Shown here: piece after piece, positions 28,929 through 44,690 of the stretch | How the letters are laid out: each line of letters opens with the position of its first letter | Position numbering within the stretch: the first letter of the stretch is position 1 | Assembly: GCA_963843145.1 (NCBI GenBank) | Contig: CAWJJC010000022.1 | Coordinates: 96,001-160,000 of the forward strand | DNA from: an uncultured delta proteobacterium | GTDB lineage: Bacteria; Desulfobacterota; RBG-13-43-22 | Length of the DNA: 64,000 bases | Reading direction: 5' to 3' | The notes under the pieces: model-generated | Database searches by the model: none | Told to the model about the DNA's origin: nothing | Seen by the model: only the letters and a program-made list of their open reading frames with translations | Program-made: the position numbers and the translations under genes

Positions 28929-30557
28929 TTAACCCAATATCGCCTTGAGATCCTCGTCCGGTGTGGTGATGGGCATGACGTTGAACGTCTTTACCAACAC
29001 ATCCAGGACATTGGGGGTGATGAAGGCCGGTAGGGAGGGCCCCAGCCGAATGTTCTTGATCCCCAGGTAAAACAAGGTCAACAAAATGGCTACGGCCTTC
29101 TGCTCATACCAGGAAAGGATCATGGACAAGGGTAGGTCATTGACCCCCACGTTAAAGGCCTTGGACAAGGCCACAGCGATCTGGATGGCCGAATAGGCAT
29201 CATTGCACTGCCCCACGTCCAGGAGGCGCGGGATCCCGCCGATATCTCCCAATTCTTTGTCAAAAAACCGGAACTTGCCGCAGGCCAGGGTGAGGATGAC
29301 CGAATCTTTGGGCGCTTTTTCCACAAACTCGGTGTAGTAGTTTCGGCCCGGTTTGGCCCCGTCGCAACCGGCTACGAGGAAGAAGTGACTGATCGCCTTG
29401 TTCTTGACCGCCTCGATCACCTGGCCGGCCACGCTCATCACGGTGTTCCGGCCGAACCCGACGGTGACCGTTTTCCCGTTGCTGTCTTCCGCAAATCCAG
29501 GCAGGGCCAAAGCCTTTTCGATAACCGGAGCAAAGTCTTTCCCGGCAATATGGGCGACGCCGGGGAAGCCCACCAATCCCGTGGTGAAAATATTGGCCTG
29601 GTAGGATTCCTTGGGCTTCTGAATGCAGTTGGTGGTCATCAGGATGGCCCCGGGAAACTCGCCGAACTCTTTGTGCTGATTCTGCCAGGCCGTCCCATAA
29701 TGGCCATAGAAATGGGCATACTTTTTCAATGCAGGATAACCGTGGGTGGGCAGCATCTCGCCGTGGGTATAAACATTAATCCCTTTGCCTTCGGTCTGTT
29801 TCAGGATCAGTTCCAGGTCTTTCAGGTCATGGCCGGAAACCAGGATGGCCTTGCCCTTTTTATGCCCTAGGGGAACCTTGGTTGGTACGGGATGTCCGTA
29901 GGTTTCCGTATTGGCTGCATCCAGGATTTCCATGGCTTTTAAATTGGCCTCGCCGCATTTCAAGGTCAGGCCCACCCAGTCGTCCAAGGTCAGGTCTTTG
30001 TTCAGGGCGGCGGCCAATCCTTCATGGATAAAGGCATAGACGGACTCATCTTCCTTGCCCAAGATCTGGGCATGGTCAGCGTAAGCGGCGACCCCCTTAA
30101 TCCCGAAAGTGACGGTCCAAATCAGCGCGTGAATATCTCTATCCGTAGTGGTATCTGATTGAATTCCAACCTTTTCTCCCTGGGCGATCATTCCCTCCAG
30201 GGTATCGGCCAGGATTAAATCCGCCGGTCCCTTCGGAAAATCCACTTTTCCGCCGGCCGCTTTCACCTTGGCTTTCAATTTTTCCCGCAGGGCCACGGTC
30301 TCTTTCAGTAAAGGAGCGAACCGCTCGGCGTCAAAATCGACATTGGTCAAAGTCGAAAACAAGGCCTTGACGGTAAAAATATTGGCCTCCGGGTCGCTGA
30401 TGCCCACCTTCCGGCCTTCCACTGCCACCTGGGACAAGCCCCGCATGGCATACACGACCAGATCCTGCAGGGCGGCTACTTCGGGTTGCTTTCCGCAGAC
30501 CCCGACTTTGGTACAGCCTTCCCCTTTGGCGGTTTGTTCACATTGATAACAAAACAT
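28929..30557 (-). CDS. hcp: Hybrid cluster protein (hydroxylamine reductase)
   Basis: MFCYQCEQT...GCTKVGVCGK, SGHDL, THGEMLP, TTNC, GCDG, LACGK, GQCNDAYS, WYEQKA. Confidence 0.97.
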   Translation of the reverse strand: MFCYQCEQTAKGEGCTKVGVCGKQPEVAALQDLVVYAMRGLSQVAVEGRKVGISDPEANIFTVKALFSTLTNVDFDAERFAPLLKETVALREKLKAKVKAAGGKVDFPKGPADLILADTLEGMIAQGEKVGIQSDTTTDRDIHALIWTVTFGIKGVAAYADHAQILGKEDESVYAFIHEGLAAALNKDLTLDDWVGLTLKCGEANLKAMEILDAANTETYGHPVPTKVPLGHKKGKAILVSGHDLKDLELILKQTEGKGINVYTHGEMLPTHGYPALKKYAHFYGHYGTAWQNQHKEFGEFPGAILMTTNCIQKPKESYQANIFTTGLVGFPGVAHIAGKDFAPVIEKALALPGFAEDSNGKTVTVGFGRNTVMSVAGQVIEAVKNKAISHFFLVAGCDGAKPGRNYYTEFVEKAPKDSVILTLACGKFRFFDKELGDIGGIPRLLDVGQCNDAYSAIQIAVALSKAFNVGVNDLPLSMILSWYEQKAVAILLTLFYLGIKNIRLGPSLPAFITPNVLDVLVKTFNVMPITTPDEDLKAILG

Positions 30558-30666
30558 GATCGATCTCCTTTCTTTGATTAAAGTTAGGTTCAATTAATTC
30601 GGAACCAACAGGGCCCGTTTAAACGTCATTTACGTTTAATAATAAGGCGACAACCGCCGAATTGCC

Positions 30667-30833: not shown

Positions 30834-30867
30834 AATCAACATATAAATGTTTATTTATATGTTGATT
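30834..30867. promoter_or_regulatory. ArsR/SmtB-type operator (perfect 15-4-15 palindrome)
   Basis: AATCAACATATAAAT-GTTT-ATTTATATGTTGATT directly upstream of the ArsR gene. Confidence 0.8.
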
Positions 30868-30903
30868 ATTTCAACGGTTGATTTCAAGAATCAGGAATAC
30901 CTA

Positions 30904-31284
30904 ATGATCAATAAGAGCAGAAACAAAATGAGCGGGGAAGAGGCTGAGGCTTACCCGGAGGAGATAGGAAACCAAGAGGAAGGGGAACAGTCCCTCTCCA
31001 CGGTGGCTTTTTTAGCCAAAAGCCTATCGGATGAAAACCGTTTGCGGGTGCTCCTCAGTCTGCGCCAGGGCCGGCTTTCGGTATCCAGCCTGGTGGAGGG
31101 CTTACAATTGTCCCAACCGCTGATTTCACATCATTTAAAGGAATTAAAAAGGTCGCTTCTAGTCAAGGTCGAGCGCAATGGGCCATTTATCTATTACGAA
31201 CTGGCCGATAAAAGAATCCTTCAGATCATGAAAGACCTGGGGACCGTGGCCGGGGAATTACTGGCCAACCGTCGAACTTTTTAG
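30904..31284 (+). CDS. tsoR: ArsR/SmtB family regulator (TsoR-like)
   Basis: LSDENRLRVL, LSQPLISHHLKELK, VERNGPFIYY; heads the selenoprotein operon. Symbol recalled from NCBIfam naming; start could be 30928. Confidence 0.85.
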   Translation: MINKSRNKMSGEEAEAYPEEIGNQEEGEQSLSTVAFLAKSLSDENRLRVLLSLRQGRLSVSSLVEGLQLSQPLISHHLKELKRSLLVKVERNGPFIYYELADKRILQIMKDLGTVAGELLANRRTF

Positions 31285-31299
31285 TCAGGAGAACAGCCG

Positions 31300-31755
31300 A
31301 TGCCTGGAAAAACGATACTGGAATTAATCGAGAAACTCGAGCCGGAAAAAGCCTTAAAAGAAATTTCTCTGGCGGTCAAAACCCTTTTCCCCTTGCTGGA
31401 TCAGGAGTCCCGGCTGAATTTTGTGGTCAGCCTGATCGGGGATGCCGGAGCGGACAAGGTGGCCAGCCTGGTGAACCTCTGACTGGCGGAATGCCTGGAC
31501 GAAGGTGTCGATCCAACCAAGATGTGCCAGAGTCTAGTGGATAAGGTTTTTCAATCGAAACAGTTAAGAACCGTGGCCGAACCGGATATTTTAGTGCTTT
31601 TTGAAGACTGGCTGGAGGAATTGGAAGAGGAAATCATAAAACAGGTGCAAAAAATCGGTCCCAACGATCTGGGGAAATTGGCTCGAGGGTTGGGGTTGTC
31701 CCAGGCCGGCGTAAATTTCCTGATCACCAAATTAAAGCGGGAAGAAAGGATTTGA
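31300..31755 (+). CDS. tsoA: Selenoprotein with LULAxC motif (Sec at TGA 31480-31482), 151 aa
   Basis: ORFs 31300-31482 and 31522-31755 are in frame and joined by open codons: VNL-TGA-LAECLDEGVDPTKMCQ. Confidence 0.82.
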
Positions 31756-31795
31756 AAGAAAAAGGGCCCTGAATTATTTGGCGGAGGTGTTCTTT

Positions 31796-33529
31796 ATGAA
31801 CCATAAAACCATATTTATTGCCGCCCTCTCAGTGGCTCTGGTAATCGGGGTTCTCTGGTTTACCAACCGGGCCGTAACCCCAACGGCGGCTACCTGGGAA
31901 GATGTTCTCCAGGAAGCCCAGCGCGGCGGCTATCGGATTATCAAGACGGATGAGATCTGGGAACGGGTTCAAAAAAATCCACAGAACCTGATGCTGGTGG
32001 ATACCCGTCAGGAATGGGAATATCGGACCGGACACCTCAGAGGGGCGGTGAATTTCCCCATGGAACCCACGGCCTGGTCCCGCTGGCGAAAACAAAAGGA
32101 GATGGAAACCTTTTTAGGACCCGATAAAAACCGCTTCTTCGTCTTTTACTGAGCGGGCTTGACCTGAGTCCGTAGCGACTCCGCAGCCCGGGTGGCTGTT
32201 AAACTTGGCTATAGAAATGTATATCGCGATCCCTACGGATTTCCGGAATGGCAGGCTAAAGGATATCCCATCAATAGCGCTCCGGCCGGCCTGTCCGGGG
32301 AAGCGGCCCCTCCCAAGACCCCCGGTCCTTTGTATGGCTGGGCCATGATCTGGACCCTGCTGGGCATCTTTGCCGGAGGGATCGCCCTGAACCTGACTCC
32401 ATGCGTCTATCCCATGATTCCCATTACCGTTTCCTATTTTGGGGGGCGGAGCGGACAGGGAAAGGGAAAACTATTGACCCATGGCCTGTTATACCTGGGA
32501 GGGCTGTCGGCCACCAACTCCATTTTGGGTGTCGTCGCGGCCTTGACCGGGGGGCTTATGGGGGCTATGCTTCAAAACCCGCTGGTTTTGGTGATAGTTG
32601 CCGCTATCTTGGTTTTTTTTGCCTCCAGCCTCTTCGGGTTTTGGGAATTGCGCCTTCCCGGAGGCCTTACCAACAGGGCTTCCAAATCATATGCCGGTTA
32701 TTTCGGTTCGTTATTTATGGGCTTGACCCTGGGCGTGGTAGCCGCACCCTGCATTGGTCCTTTCGTTCTCGGACTCTTAACCTGGGTGGCCAGCATGGGG
32801 TCCCCCTGGCTGGGGTTTATTGTCTTTTTTACCTTGAGCCTGGGCCTGGGCCTGCCTTTGTTCTTTCTGGCCTTGTTCTCCGGCAAGATCGAAAAATTGC
32901 CCCGGTCCGGGGAGTGGATGCTCTGGGTTCGAAAACTCATGGGTTGGATCCTGGTGGGCATGGCGGCCTATTTCATTCGGCCCCTCCTATCCGAAACCTT
33001 AGCAGTACTCCTTTTCGTTTCGGTAGCCTTGGGCGCCGGACTGCACCTTGGCTGGCTGGACAAGTCCCGGGCCGGCTTTCGGGCCTTCGCCTGGATGAAA
33101 GGCGGGGCCGGGGTTGCCGGTCTGGTGATTGCCACTTTTATCCTGGGATCCTGGATGATACGCGGTCCGGGGGTGGCCTGGAATGCCTATTCGGACAAGC
33201 TCCTGGCGGAAGCGGCCCAAAACCGGAAACCGGTCATCATCGATTTTTATGCCACCTGGTGTACCCCCTGCCGGGAACTGGAGGAAATCACCTTTCACCA
33301 TCCTGAGGTGGTCAAAAGGGGAAATCGTGATTTTATCATGGTAAAAGTGGACCTGACCCGGGCCGGCGATCCACTAAATGAACGGCTACTCCGTCAGTAT
33401 AAAATCAAAGGAGTTCCAACCGTGGTATTTATAGACTCGAGTGGGAAAGAGCATCCGGACTTAAGGCTGGTCGATTATCTCCCGCCGGATCAGTTCTTGA
33501 AGAAAATGGATACCATAAACCAAAAATAA
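31796..33529 (+). CDS. tsoB: Rhodanese-CcdA/DsbD-thioredoxin fusion selenoprotein with two Sec (TGA 32150-32152 and 32165-32167), 577 aa
   Basis: FVFY-U-AGLT-U-VRSDSAAR.A.KLGY.NVY matches the rhodanese loop VFYCxGxxCxRS; continues in frame to LTPCVYP/AAPCIGP (DsbD TM) and ATWCTPC (Trx). Confidence 0.9.
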
Positions 33530-33547
33530 GGGAGGACGGGTGAACAT

Positions 33548-34057
33548 ATGGCGTACATAGAGAAATTTTTAGGAAAACGGGTCGAGATCCCTGAGGACCG
33601 GCGGTATGTGATTAAACCGGGGCTCTGGGCCAAGGTGGAAGGGCCGGATTTTCGATTTGGTTTAACCGAACCGGAACTGGTTTTGGCCGGTGGGGTCAAT
33701 GACCTGGAATGGCTGGTCTGGGACGGCGAGGAAGTGGAACAGGGACAGTCGATCGCCATTATCATTACCGGAAAAATTAAATATATCGACGTTCCCCTGG
33801 CCGGGGTCCTGGGATTAAATCCAAAAGTGAAAGAGGTCACGGCCCTTATTGCCCAGGATCCTTATGGACAGGGATGGCTGTTTCAAATTAAAAAAGGGTC
33901 CGAAGCGAATGCCGGCTTCGAGGAACTATCATCGGCTGAAGCGTATGTGGCAAGTCTACAGAATTCAGAGGGTTGTAAGAACCCGGAAGGAATAAAGGGC
34001 GGAGTCTCCGGGATCTGCAAGGCAGTTTATACTGGGATCAAAGAACAAAAATTCTAA
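33548..34057 (+). CDS. GcvH-like (glycine cleavage H family) protein with C-terminal Cys pair
   Basis: IPEDRRY..LWAK, FGLT, PLAG, DPYGQGWL; lipoyl site degenerate (ITGKIK); tail GCKNP...GICKAVY. Confidence 0.78.
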   Translation: MAYIEKFLGKRVEIPEDRRYVIKPGLWAKVEGPDFRFGLTEPELVLAGGVNDLEWLVWDGEEVEQGQSIAIIITGKIKYIDVPLAGVLGLNPKVKEVTALIAQDPYGQGWLFQIKKGSEANAGFEELSSAEAYVASLQNSEGCKNPEGIKGGVSGICKAVYTGIKEQKF

Positions 34058-34080
34058 AAATAAGGAAAGGAGAAAATAAT

Positions 34081-34398
34081 ATGGTCAAGGTCCGGTGTTT
34101 TTATAATGAACCCAATGGGAAGCCATGAAAGCATTTTCAGGAAATGATGCCCAGGTTGGGCCAAAAGTACGAAATTGAGGTTGAAATACTATCCAAACCT
34201 ATAGCTGAATACAATACGGATGAATATTTTGAACTGGAATTGCCGGTAGCCCCGGCCATCATGGTGGATGATCAGATCATGGTGGAAGGCTCCGATGTCG
34301 CTGAAGAAAAATTGGAGAACGCCATCCGCGCCAAATTGGGTCTGGAGCCTGTGGCGTCGGAAAAGAAGGGGGTCCTGGGGCGGCTTTTTAGTCGTTAA
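34081..34398 (+). CDS. tsoC: Thioredoxin/glutaredoxin-like selenoprotein, NEPxGxxU motif (Sec at TGA 34126-34128), 105 aa
   Basis: AAGGAG RBS before ATG 34081; MVKVRCFYNEPNGKP-TGA-KHFQEMMPRL is in frame with ORF 34144-34398, which carries the cis-Pro motif PVAPAIMVDD. Confidence 0.88.
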
Positions 34399-34479
34399 AG
34401 GTCGCTTTTCCCCTTGCCTCGTTTGTTTTTTCCTTATACATTCTTAAAATTATAAAAAAAGTTAAAAAGGAGGAGATCC

Positions 34480-34809
34480 ATGAAGACCTTCGAGTATGAG
34501 GGGATGAAGATTGAGCTGGATGAAGAGGGGTATCTTCTGGACTTTGAGGCTTGGGATGAAAAAGTGGCCTGTGCCTTGGCGGAGAGGGAAGGGATAAGCC
34601 AGGACTGTCCCCTGAAACCTGAACAAATGGAAATTCTGAAATTCATCCGAGAATATTATAAGAAGTTTGAATCCGTGCCTGTGGTCCGGGCGGTCTGCAC
34701 CAATGTCCATCAACCTAAAAGTTGCGAATACCTGCAGTTTCCCGATCCACTGATCACCTGTAAAATCGCCGGGATTCCCAAACTGGAAACCGGGTATACC
34801 TTGATGTAA
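34480..34809 (+). CDS. TusE/DsrC-like protein lacking the C-terminal active-site Cys
   Basis: LDEEGYL..F..WDE..A..LA..EGI, FIREYY, CKIAGIPK then ETGYTLM-stop. Confidence 0.85.
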   Translation: MKTFEYEGMKIELDEEGYLLDFEAWDEKVACALAEREGISQDCPLKPEQMEILKFIREYYKKFESVPVVRAVCTNVHQPKSCEYLQFPDPLITCKIAGIPKLETGYTLM

Positions 34810-44440: not shown

Positions 44441-44539
44441 ATGGTTGAAATCCGGTCAAAAGCATTATTTCTTAAAGTTTTCCAAATAAAGTCCGATAAA
44501 AGAGACAGGAAATAGGTCTAAGTTAATAAATCAAAACCT

Positions 44540-44628
44540 GTAAAGGGCAAACCATCCGAAAGGGTGGGACGCAAAGCCACTGGCCTAAATGATCTGCAAT
44601 ATGCGGAACAAAGGGTAGCAGGGTTGCC
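44540..44628 (+). ncRNA. Cyclic di-GMP-I (GEMM-I) riboswitch
   Basis: AGGGCAAACCATCCGAAAGGGTGGGACGCAAAGCCACTGGCCTAA...GGTAGCAGGGTTGCC closely matches the Vc2 aptamer. Confidence 0.93.
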
Positions 44629-44690
44629 AGGCGAAGACGGTACCTCTCGGGACTGTTCATCGCTGAACGGCAAAAACGGGAGGTACTGGC

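Follow-up and report, generated by a model that had tools for sequence, protein, structure and literature searches.

How does a bacterial ribosome decode two UGA codons that lie only five codons apart in the same gene? The question is raised by a locus within a stretch of 64,000 nucleotides (nt) from an uncultured delta proteobacterium (Desulfobacterota; RBG-13-43-22; GenBank assembly GCA_963843145.1, contig CAWJJC010000022.1, positions 96,001 to 160,000 of the forward strand), which we call the window and number from its first letter. Here, the letters 32147-32176 were TAC TGA GCG GGC TTG ACC TGA GTC CGT AGC, corresponding to Y-U-AGLT-U-VRS. With TGA read as selenocysteine (Sec, U), a single open frame spanned 31778-33529, and its probable start was the ATG at 31796, which had GGAGG upstream and gave a product of 577 amino acids (aa). 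An earlier reading of the window, made from the letters alone (the sequence-only reading), had placed a double in-frame UGA in a rhodanese active-site loop, and both the codons and the translation were borne out exactly.

The gene at 31796-33529 is, according to its profile match, TsoB, a member of a selenoprotein family already catalogued in the NCBIfam database as NF045694, "rhodanese/DsbD fusion-like selenoprotein". Its product scored 1024.5 bits against a curated cut-off of 805 and covered model positions 2-571 of 572; in the genome-wide profile search, the score was 1012.3 bits. The characteristic features of the family were all present, namely UxxxxU encoded with two UGAs, a rhodanese, a DsbD core and a thioredoxin domain in one chain, and adjoining genes that matched the TsoR, TsoA and TsoC models. 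A table in a 2026 review (PMC13188914) lists the TsoB family with the motif UxxxxU and two Sec residues and credits it to Haft & Tolstoy 2025 (mSystems 10:e0141724; PMC12013261). This review was the only item on the family that turned up in the literature searched, a scope that did not extend to Haft & Tolstoy 2025 itself. Thus, the family and its double-Sec loop were already known, and the novelty implied by the sequence-only reading was overestimated. Since the family and its motif had been catalogued, the value of the locus lay in the detail that it offered on the recoding signals rather than in discovery; the comparative evidence for two tandem recoding hairpins may be new. We considered it very probable that the gene encodes a rhodanese/DsbD-type reductase in which both UGAs are read as Sec, and, less surely, that one hairpin serves each UGA.

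When 401 genomes of the phylum were searched with the TsoB model, matches over the cut-off were found in 25 genomes at 29 places, and all 29 held exactly two TGA codons. The matches below the cut-off began past model position 150 and contained no stops, with the exception of split TsoB copies in two genomes (G384 and G336) and a partial match with a single TGA in a third (G107). In some genomes (G051, G121 and G148), tsoB was present twice at full length, and either copy had its pair of TGA codons. A scan of one genome per species yielded 80 loci, 59 with the rhodanese loop and 21 without a rhodanese domain. TGA occupied both sites in 59/59 of the rhodanese-loop loci, which included Nitrospirota, Desulfacinum infernum (DSM 9756, locus L110) and the Olavius Delta-1 symbiont. 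Among the 21 rhodanese-less loci, four (L123, L125, L127 and L129) were short forms without an N-terminal domain and two (L118 and L122) were left unclassified, while most (e.g., L119-L121, L124 and L126) had an N-terminal Cys-pair domain that, from its motif, we take to be the classical DsbD alpha domain. A metagenome scan gave 80 loci, of which 78 were TGA/TGA and 2 were identical contigs with TCA/TCA. When the sets were pooled, TGA was present at both sites in 163 of the 165 loci with a readable loop. Both UGAs are thus conserved, which supports the earlier reading of two Sec codons within one unbroken chain.

These counts bear directly on the possibility that the locus is a pseudogene, a product of sequencing errors or a case of general TGA reassignment. 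Nothing specific spoke for it, but some homologous loci did contain frameshifts or extra stops. Namely, an additional TGA took the place of a Trp codon near the beginning of the membrane core in L102, and frameshifts were present upstream of the loop in L111 and within tsoC in L010; these apparent defects could be due to errors or decay. On the other hand, 163 loci of several lineages, Nitrospirota among them, had these two TGAs at identical positions. Moreover, TGA also terminates tsoA at 31753-31755 and thus still serves as a stop in this organism, and the genome has a complete Sec system. We regarded this explanation as effectively refuted by the conservation data.

Another possibility was that the gene is expressed as two separate products, a truncated rhodanese that stops at UGA1 and a DsbD/thioredoxin part that starts from the GTG at 32192. 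Standard gene calling produces exactly these pieces, and many database proteins of ~119 aa end at FY, just ahead of UGA1. However, such a fragment would lose the whole active-site loop together with the last part of the rhodanese fold. In the 145 distinct TGA/TGA sequences, which formed the set for our codon, pair and loop counts, the Gly between the two UGAs was invariant (145/145) while being encoded by GGC in 76, GGT in 33, GGG in 25 and GGA in 11. Coding constraint acts on the residues that separate the two UGAs and on those that follow them, and since the Gly was fixed while all four third bases were used, UGA1 must be read through. The codon at 32192 was GTA, CTG, GCG or GAA in 31 of the 145, which contradicted the separate synthesis from this GTG that the sequence-only reading had named as its refuting case. 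The GTG also sits within the second hairpin described below, and the double TGA was kept in nearly all of the pooled loci. Production of two separate proteins was accordingly judged very improbable.

According to the profile and genome searches, the genome holds SelA, SelB (368.8 bits, on contig C27), SelD and a tRNA-Sec with the anticodon UCA. The SelD gene (G000 contig C27:447576-448499, locus L047) has one in-frame TGA, so that SelD is itself a selenoprotein here. We infer that both UGA codons of tsoB are read as Sec by this SelA/SelB/SelD/tRNA-Sec system. Homologues with Cys were consistent with it. Sixteen fetched homologues were aligned by eye, and site 1 was also compared by structure alignments; 9/16 had the motif Y-C-x4-C-x-(R/Y)-S, with a Cys aligned to each Sec. 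This agreed with the earlier statement that Cys-x4-Cys rhodanese loops exist. The other homologues included two with D-x4-C (P0113 and P0140), one with C-x4-W, a partial homologue with G and D at the first and second sites, respectively (P0037), a tandem-rhodanese protein whose loops were short and canonical (P0003), and a fragment that ended just past the site-1 Cys (P0044). A full-length TsoB-like protein of 591 aa without Sec (P0004), which at 802.9 bits fell just below the cut-off of 805, had Gly in place of the first Sec and Cys in place of the second. This suggests that forms without Sec retain the second of the two sites. The DNA of this G-x4-C form was not recovered by the metagenome scan, which gave only loci of 51-60% identity, 78/80 of them TGA/TGA.

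If both UGAs are decoded as Sec, recoding signals should be sought immediately downstream, where the sequence-only reading had described a hairpin resembling a selenocysteine insertion sequence (SECIS) after each UGA. The first hairpin (hairpin 1) begins 13 nt past UGA1, has its loop 18 nt past UGA1, and contains the G and the A of UGA2. The second (hairpin 2) had been drawn as CAGCC / CGGGU / GGCUG at 32184-32198, 16 nt past UGA2, and a G-U pair widens it to 32183-32199; its loop begins 21 nt past UGA2. Both elements, with their sequences and spacings and the overlap of hairpin 1 with UGA2, had thus been described correctly. However, the hairpins were not interleaved, as had been stated, but adjacent, in tandem. 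The covariation check among homologues also upheld the claim of a SECIS-like hairpin past each UGA and showed both hairpins to be conserved.

Folding of the single sequence was unremarkable, and the evidence for the hairpins therefore comes from comparison. In the minimum-energy fold of 32140-32230, a long stem (positions 4-11 with 34-40) had many mismatches in 26 homologues and was rejected. An 8-base-pair (bp) helix directly 3' of UGA1, from the fold of 32150-32201, was likewise rejected. It was 77.8% paired in 80 homologues, its pair and type counts were no better than those of shuffles (reached by 81-89 of 500), and it rose only weakly above them in percentage paired (reached by 39/500) and covariation score (26/500). 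In an ungapped alignment of 80 distinct sequences, the two-hairpin structure had 97.9% of its cells paired, as compared to 24-60% when the 3' partners were slid, and 0/500 shuffles equalled it in percentage paired or in covariation score. RNAalifold predicted both hairpins unguided, in the case of hairpin 1 its 3-bp core.

In hairpin 2, compensatory changes were seen at two base pairs. Across the 145 sequences, pair 35-47 was G-C in 90, A-U in 32, C-G in 18, a wobble in 3 and a mismatch in 2, and pair 38-44 was C-G in 115, U-A in 27, U-G in 2 and a mismatch in 1. The remaining four pairs were kept in 144-145/145, so that every pair of hairpin 2 was kept in 143-145/145. On a FastTree phylogeny of the downstream protein, which held 76/80 rows (L034, L102, L103 and L111 were omitted because of short or broken frames), pairs 35-47 and 38-44 each required at least 5 state changes and pair 20-27 at least 3; such repeated changes indicate that the covariation was not one inherited event. 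The loop of hairpin 2 was CGGGU in 85 sequences, CGUGU in 43, AGGGU in 6, AGGUU in 3, AGUUU in 3 and AGGCU in 2.

Hairpin 1 left a different trace. Its five pairs were kept in 141, 135, 145, 143 and 144 of the 145 sequences, and its loop was near invariant, with A24 and G25 in 145/145 and C21-G22 in 142/145. Among 26 TsoB genes, there were 128 columns with an invariant residue and a degenerate codon, and only 3 of them used one codon throughout; two of these three were the Val GTC and the Asp GAC that form the stem of hairpin 1. In the larger set, the Val codon was GTC in 132, GTT (a wobble) in 7, GTG in 3, GTA in 1 and GCC in 2, and G-U wobbles occurred in the stem of 10 sequences (GTT in 7 and GAT in 3). 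All synonymous variants of the Val and Asp codons were compatible with pairing except GTA (1/145). In three Nitrospirota sequences, a C-G pair was swapped to G-C, where the Val codon GTG was accompanied by a change of Asp GAC to His CAC; the pair was restored at the cost of an amino-acid change. On this comparative evidence, both hairpins are real conserved elements.

How these elements act was assessed against the bacterial SECIS model of Zhang & Gladyshev. As summarised in the 2026 review (PMC13188914), this model calls for 3-9 nt in the loop, with a G within its first two positions, 4-16 bp in the stem, a UGA-to-loop distance of 16-37 nt and a minimum free energy of at most -7.5 kcal/mol. 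Hairpin 2 agreed with every rule (5-nt loop CGGGU, 6 bp, 21 nt from UGA2, -8.6 kcal/mol). Hairpin 1, with a loop of 6 nt whose second base is G, a stem of 5 bp and a distance of 18 nt from UGA1, agreed with all the rules but that on energy. The two UGA-to-loop distances, 18 and 21 nt, were alike and also resembled those in tsoA and tsoC, which supports one SECIS per UGA. Both of these genes have a conserved hairpin downstream of their UGA. In tsoA, the loop AGGUG begins 20 nt past the UGA (RNAalifold, 43 distinct homologues). In tsoC, the loop begins 24 nt past the UGA, with the outer pair G23-C35 read by eye; the hairpin CCC / AGGUU / GGG was present in 37/64 distinct sequences, with the loop variants AGGCU, GGUCU and GUGCU. 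The assignment of one minimal SECIS to each UGA was the best supported, and we held it to be probable, if by no means secure. Under it, SelB with Sec-tRNA would dock on hairpin 1 and UGA1 would be decoded. The ribosome would then melt hairpin 1, which holds part of UGA2, while advancing five codons after Sec119. UGA2 would thereby come to occupy the A site while hairpin 2 stood where the mRNA enters, allowing a second SelB delivery.

A number of observations weighed against this explanation. Hairpin 1 alone had a folding energy of -5.6 kcal/mol and so failed the energy limit of the model, and its 6-nt loop differed from the 5-nt loops of the three other hairpins of the operon. The single-sequence energies were no better than those of shuffles: the 91-nt stretch 32140-32230 had z = +0.73, with 152/200 shuffles folding at least as well, and 9/200 and 27/200 shuffles were as good as hairpin 1 and hairpin 2 alone, respectively (both together gave -14.2 kcal/mol). 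The compensatory change in hairpin 1 concerned one pair in one lineage (the three sequences above), and the hairpin was largely broken in one homologue (L103). Rfam gave no SECIS-family match at the gathering threshold in a scan of the whole window; in 31250-34450, where E values up to 10 were admitted, it gave only four chance matches to small nucleolar RNA or microRNA families and none to a SECIS family. Finally, the metagenomic lineage represented by the two identical contigs had TCA (Ser) at both Sec sites of tsoB with the hairpins intact. These contigs (L205 and L215, identical over 4677 nt, with the loop near nt 1798) kept TGA in their tsoA and tsoC genes, and their TCA/TCA may be either a natural Ser/Ser variant or an artefact.

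Some of these points would also fit the use of one SECIS twice, with hairpin 2 alone binding SelB and hairpin 1 acting as a collapsible spacer. At 36 nt from UGA1, the loop of hairpin 2 is still within the 16-37 nt of the model, and this hairpin could formally serve both UGAs. With hairpin 1 folded, hairpin 2 would be ~14-15 single-stranded nt from UGA1, and with hairpin 1 melted, 15-16 nt from UGA2; this spacer arithmetic follows straight from the coordinates. The weakness of hairpin 1 fits the same explanation, and so does its loop CGNAGY, which is unlike the NG(G/U)NN loops shared by hairpin 2 with the tsoA and tsoC hairpins. However, a pure spacer would not need a near-invariant loop, although the loop bases are constrained by Arg and Ser codons as well. 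For the remaining hairpins of these operons, the UGA-to-loop distances are 20-24 nt rather than 36, and the distance of 18 nt from UGA1 to hairpin 1 matches them. Double use of one SECIS was considered unlikely but deserving of attention. Also improbable was a broader version, in which the two hairpins form a dedicated and previously unanalysed double-recoding module. In its boldest form, hairpin 1 would not bind SelB but would be a ribosome-melted spacer that places one SECIS (hairpin 2) at an equal effective distance to two UGAs 15 nt apart, and the product would have a natural bacterial extracytoplasmic diselenide recycled by the built-in DsbD part.

The assignment of both UGAs to Sec, with one hairpin for each, leads to the protein itself. 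In Pfam searches (numbering from the TTG at 31778), the chain comprised Rhodanese at 58-161, DsbD_TM at 191-403 and a thioredoxin-like domain at 468-576. The Pfam rhodanese match (PF00581) takes in Sec119, which occupies the catalytic position where the active-site loop begins. In alignments to the solved rhodaneses 6mxv, 3d1p and 6k6r, U119 fell on the catalytic Cys, and the TsoB loop was two residues longer. Hydropathy gave eight membrane segments between residues 183 and 455, with Cys203 just past segment 1 and Cys319 in segment 4. In DsbD, the alpha and gamma domains are on the same side of the membrane. Since the number of core helices is even, the rhodanese of TsoB should likewise be on the same, outer side as its thioredoxin domain. 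The topology prediction that had been called for to check the fused protein thus gave an N-terminal segment plus eight helices, with the rhodanese on the thioredoxin side and export as a likely consequence of the N-terminal segment.

The best explanation of this architecture is that TsoB is a DsbD-type transmembrane thiol-disulfide reductase in which a rhodanese replaces the usual periplasmic N-terminal domain. U119 and U124 would stand in place of the Cys pair of DsbD-alpha. By analogy with DsbD, electrons from the cytoplasm may pass to the membrane Cys pair C203/C319, then to C489/C492 of the WCTPC motif and finally to U119/U124. The Sec pair may alternate between a diselenol when reduced and, when oxidised, a diselenide or an Se-X-Se adduct, and it may act on a periplasmic chalcogen or metalloid substrate. 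The periplasmic location, the electron path, the diselenide with its reduction by the fused domains and the substrate are all proposed on this analogy. Cys-x4-Cys rhodaneses are also found fused to TlpA/ResA-like thioredoxin domains (P0095 and P0130), which fits a redox-partner relationship. A further point on the opposing side is that the redox potential of a diselenide is low, and a CXXC domain may find its reduction hard.

Table 1. Coordinates of tsoB, its parts and its neighbours in the window (forward strand +)
Feature	Position	Strand	Evidence
tsoR, ArsR/SmtB-type regulator	30847..31284	+	NF045707 154.1 bits, cut-off 115
tsoA, LULAxC-motif selenoprotein, in-frame UGA 31480-31482	31300..31755	+	halves match NF045695 positions 1-55 and 70-144; translation L-U-LAEC
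tsoB coding sequence, 577 aa, two in-frame UGA	31796..33529	+	NF045694 (1024.5 bits, cut-off 805); translation
N-terminal hydrophobic segment, residues 5-23, signal or anchor; export presumed	31808..31864	+	Kyte-Doolittle peak 2.37
Rhodanese domain over both UGAs	31949..32260	+	Pfam PF00581 52 bits, cut-off 22.2
UGA1, Sec119 (counted from ATG 31796), canonical rhodanese catalytic position	32150..32152	+	translation; structure alignments; TGA in 163/165 loci
UGA2, Sec124, five residues past Sec119	32165..32167	+	translation; TGA in 163/165 loci; Cys here in full-length homologue P0004
Hairpin 1, GAGUC / CGUAGC / GACUC, 5-bp stem, 6-nt loop CGNAGY, proposed SECIS for UGA1	32166..32181	+	
Hairpin 2, 6-bp stem, 5-nt loop (C/A)G(G/U)NU, putative SECIS for UGA2	32183..32199	+	covariation, tree, shuffles
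DsbD-type membrane core with Cys203 and Cys319	32348..32986	+	Pfam PF02683 141.5 bits
C-terminal thioredoxin-like domain, WCTPC (Cys489, Cys492)	33179..33505	+	Pfam Thioredoxin_7, Thioredoxin_2, Thioredoxin (PF13899/PF13098/PF00085)
GcvH-related gene between tsoB and tsoC, lineage-specific insertion	33548..34057	+	NF045810 246.4 bits
tsoC, NEPxGxxU selenoprotein, UGA 34126-34128	34081..34398	+	NF045708 99.7 bits, cut-off 45; translation NEPNGKP-U
TusE/DsrC-family gene, accessory in this lineage	34480..34809	+	TIGR03342 66.1 bits

By its profile matches, the tsoR-tsoA-tsoB-tsoC operon holds two further selenoprotein genes, tsoA and tsoC (Table 1). Neighbours were surveyed with tblastn at 85 TsoB loci, and in this sample, where many loci were shortened by contig ends, TsoC was found downstream in 72, TsoR upstream in 58 and TsoA upstream in 53. 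Rarer neighbours were the GcvH-related gene (7 loci), a TauE-like gene (4) and a DsrC-like gene (3). In the present genome, a sulfur-relay context is hinted at by the GcvH-related gene in combination with a TauE-like permease and the TusE/DsrC-family gene. A gene for a hybrid-cluster protein (hydroxylamine reductase; 28929-30593 on the minus strand, 832 bits) lies divergently upstream of the tso operon; it adjoined tsoB in only 2 of the 85 loci. Elsewhere in the window, a c-di-GMP-I-GGC riboswitch aptamer (RF03167) was found at 44537-44632 on the plus strand (66.8 bits, gathering score 59).

Few bacterial proteins have two selenocysteines, and in TsoB, which is one of them, they are only five codons apart. 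The comparative data make it a clean natural system for studying how two UGAs that follow so closely on each other are decoded by SelB and the bacterial ribosome, and the question that it poses is whether two tandem minimal SECIS elements are used or one element is used twice. The same data supply precise synonymous mutations that could probe double recoding. The protein, in turn, would be a good place to seek a natural centre, either diselenide or Se-X-Se, that receives its electrons through a relay of the DsbD type.

In comparison to the catalogued TsoB family (NF045694), all the tested features were alike, including the hidden Markov model score, the UxxxxU motif, the domain order and the TsoR, TsoA and TsoC neighbours. 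No difference was found in these features, and this copy has the GcvH-related gene between tsoB and tsoC. With respect to the consensus SECIS model, both hairpins share the small apical loop with an early G, the stem of at least 4 bp and the distance of 16-37 nt. In contrast, the TsoB elements are back to back, 1 nt apart, and the first of them overlaps UGA2 and is under the stability limit.

A rhodanese-related selenoprotein with a second Sec was reported from the Olavius symbionts in 2007 (PMC1976440). Both proteins are rhodaneses with two close Sec residues from Deltaproteobacteria-type organisms. However, the motif is UxU there and UxxxxU in TsoB, and the excerpt of that report describing the symbiont protein does not mention a DsbD fusion. 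The Cys-x4-Cys rhodaneses in our set (P0065, P0066, P0070, P0073, P0079, P0081, P0095, P0106 and P0130) had the same loop, Y-C-x4-C-x-R/Y-S, and were either stand-alone or fused to a TlpA/ResA-like thioredoxin (thiol-disulfide oxidoreductase) domain. They differed from TsoB in having Cys instead of Sec and in lacking the DsbD membrane core, and they scored ~100 bits on NF045694.

The DsbD model NF001419 gave TsoB 238.4 bits against a cut-off of 330 and matched residues 190-580 only. By analogy, TsoB may work like DsbD, but it is not a member of that family according to this model. Related genomes contain paralogues whose N-terminal domain we take for the classical alpha domain (L119-L121, L124, L126 and others). 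Escherichia coli DsbD, as generally known, has a two-Cys membrane core, a C-terminal thioredoxin-like CXXC domain and an N-terminal extracytoplasmic redox pair, all of which have a counterpart in TsoB, and the six redox residues in three pairs are common to both. The difference is at the N-terminus, where DsbD has an immunoglobulin-like alpha domain with a Cys pair, whereas TsoB has a rhodanese with a Sec pair in x4 spacing.

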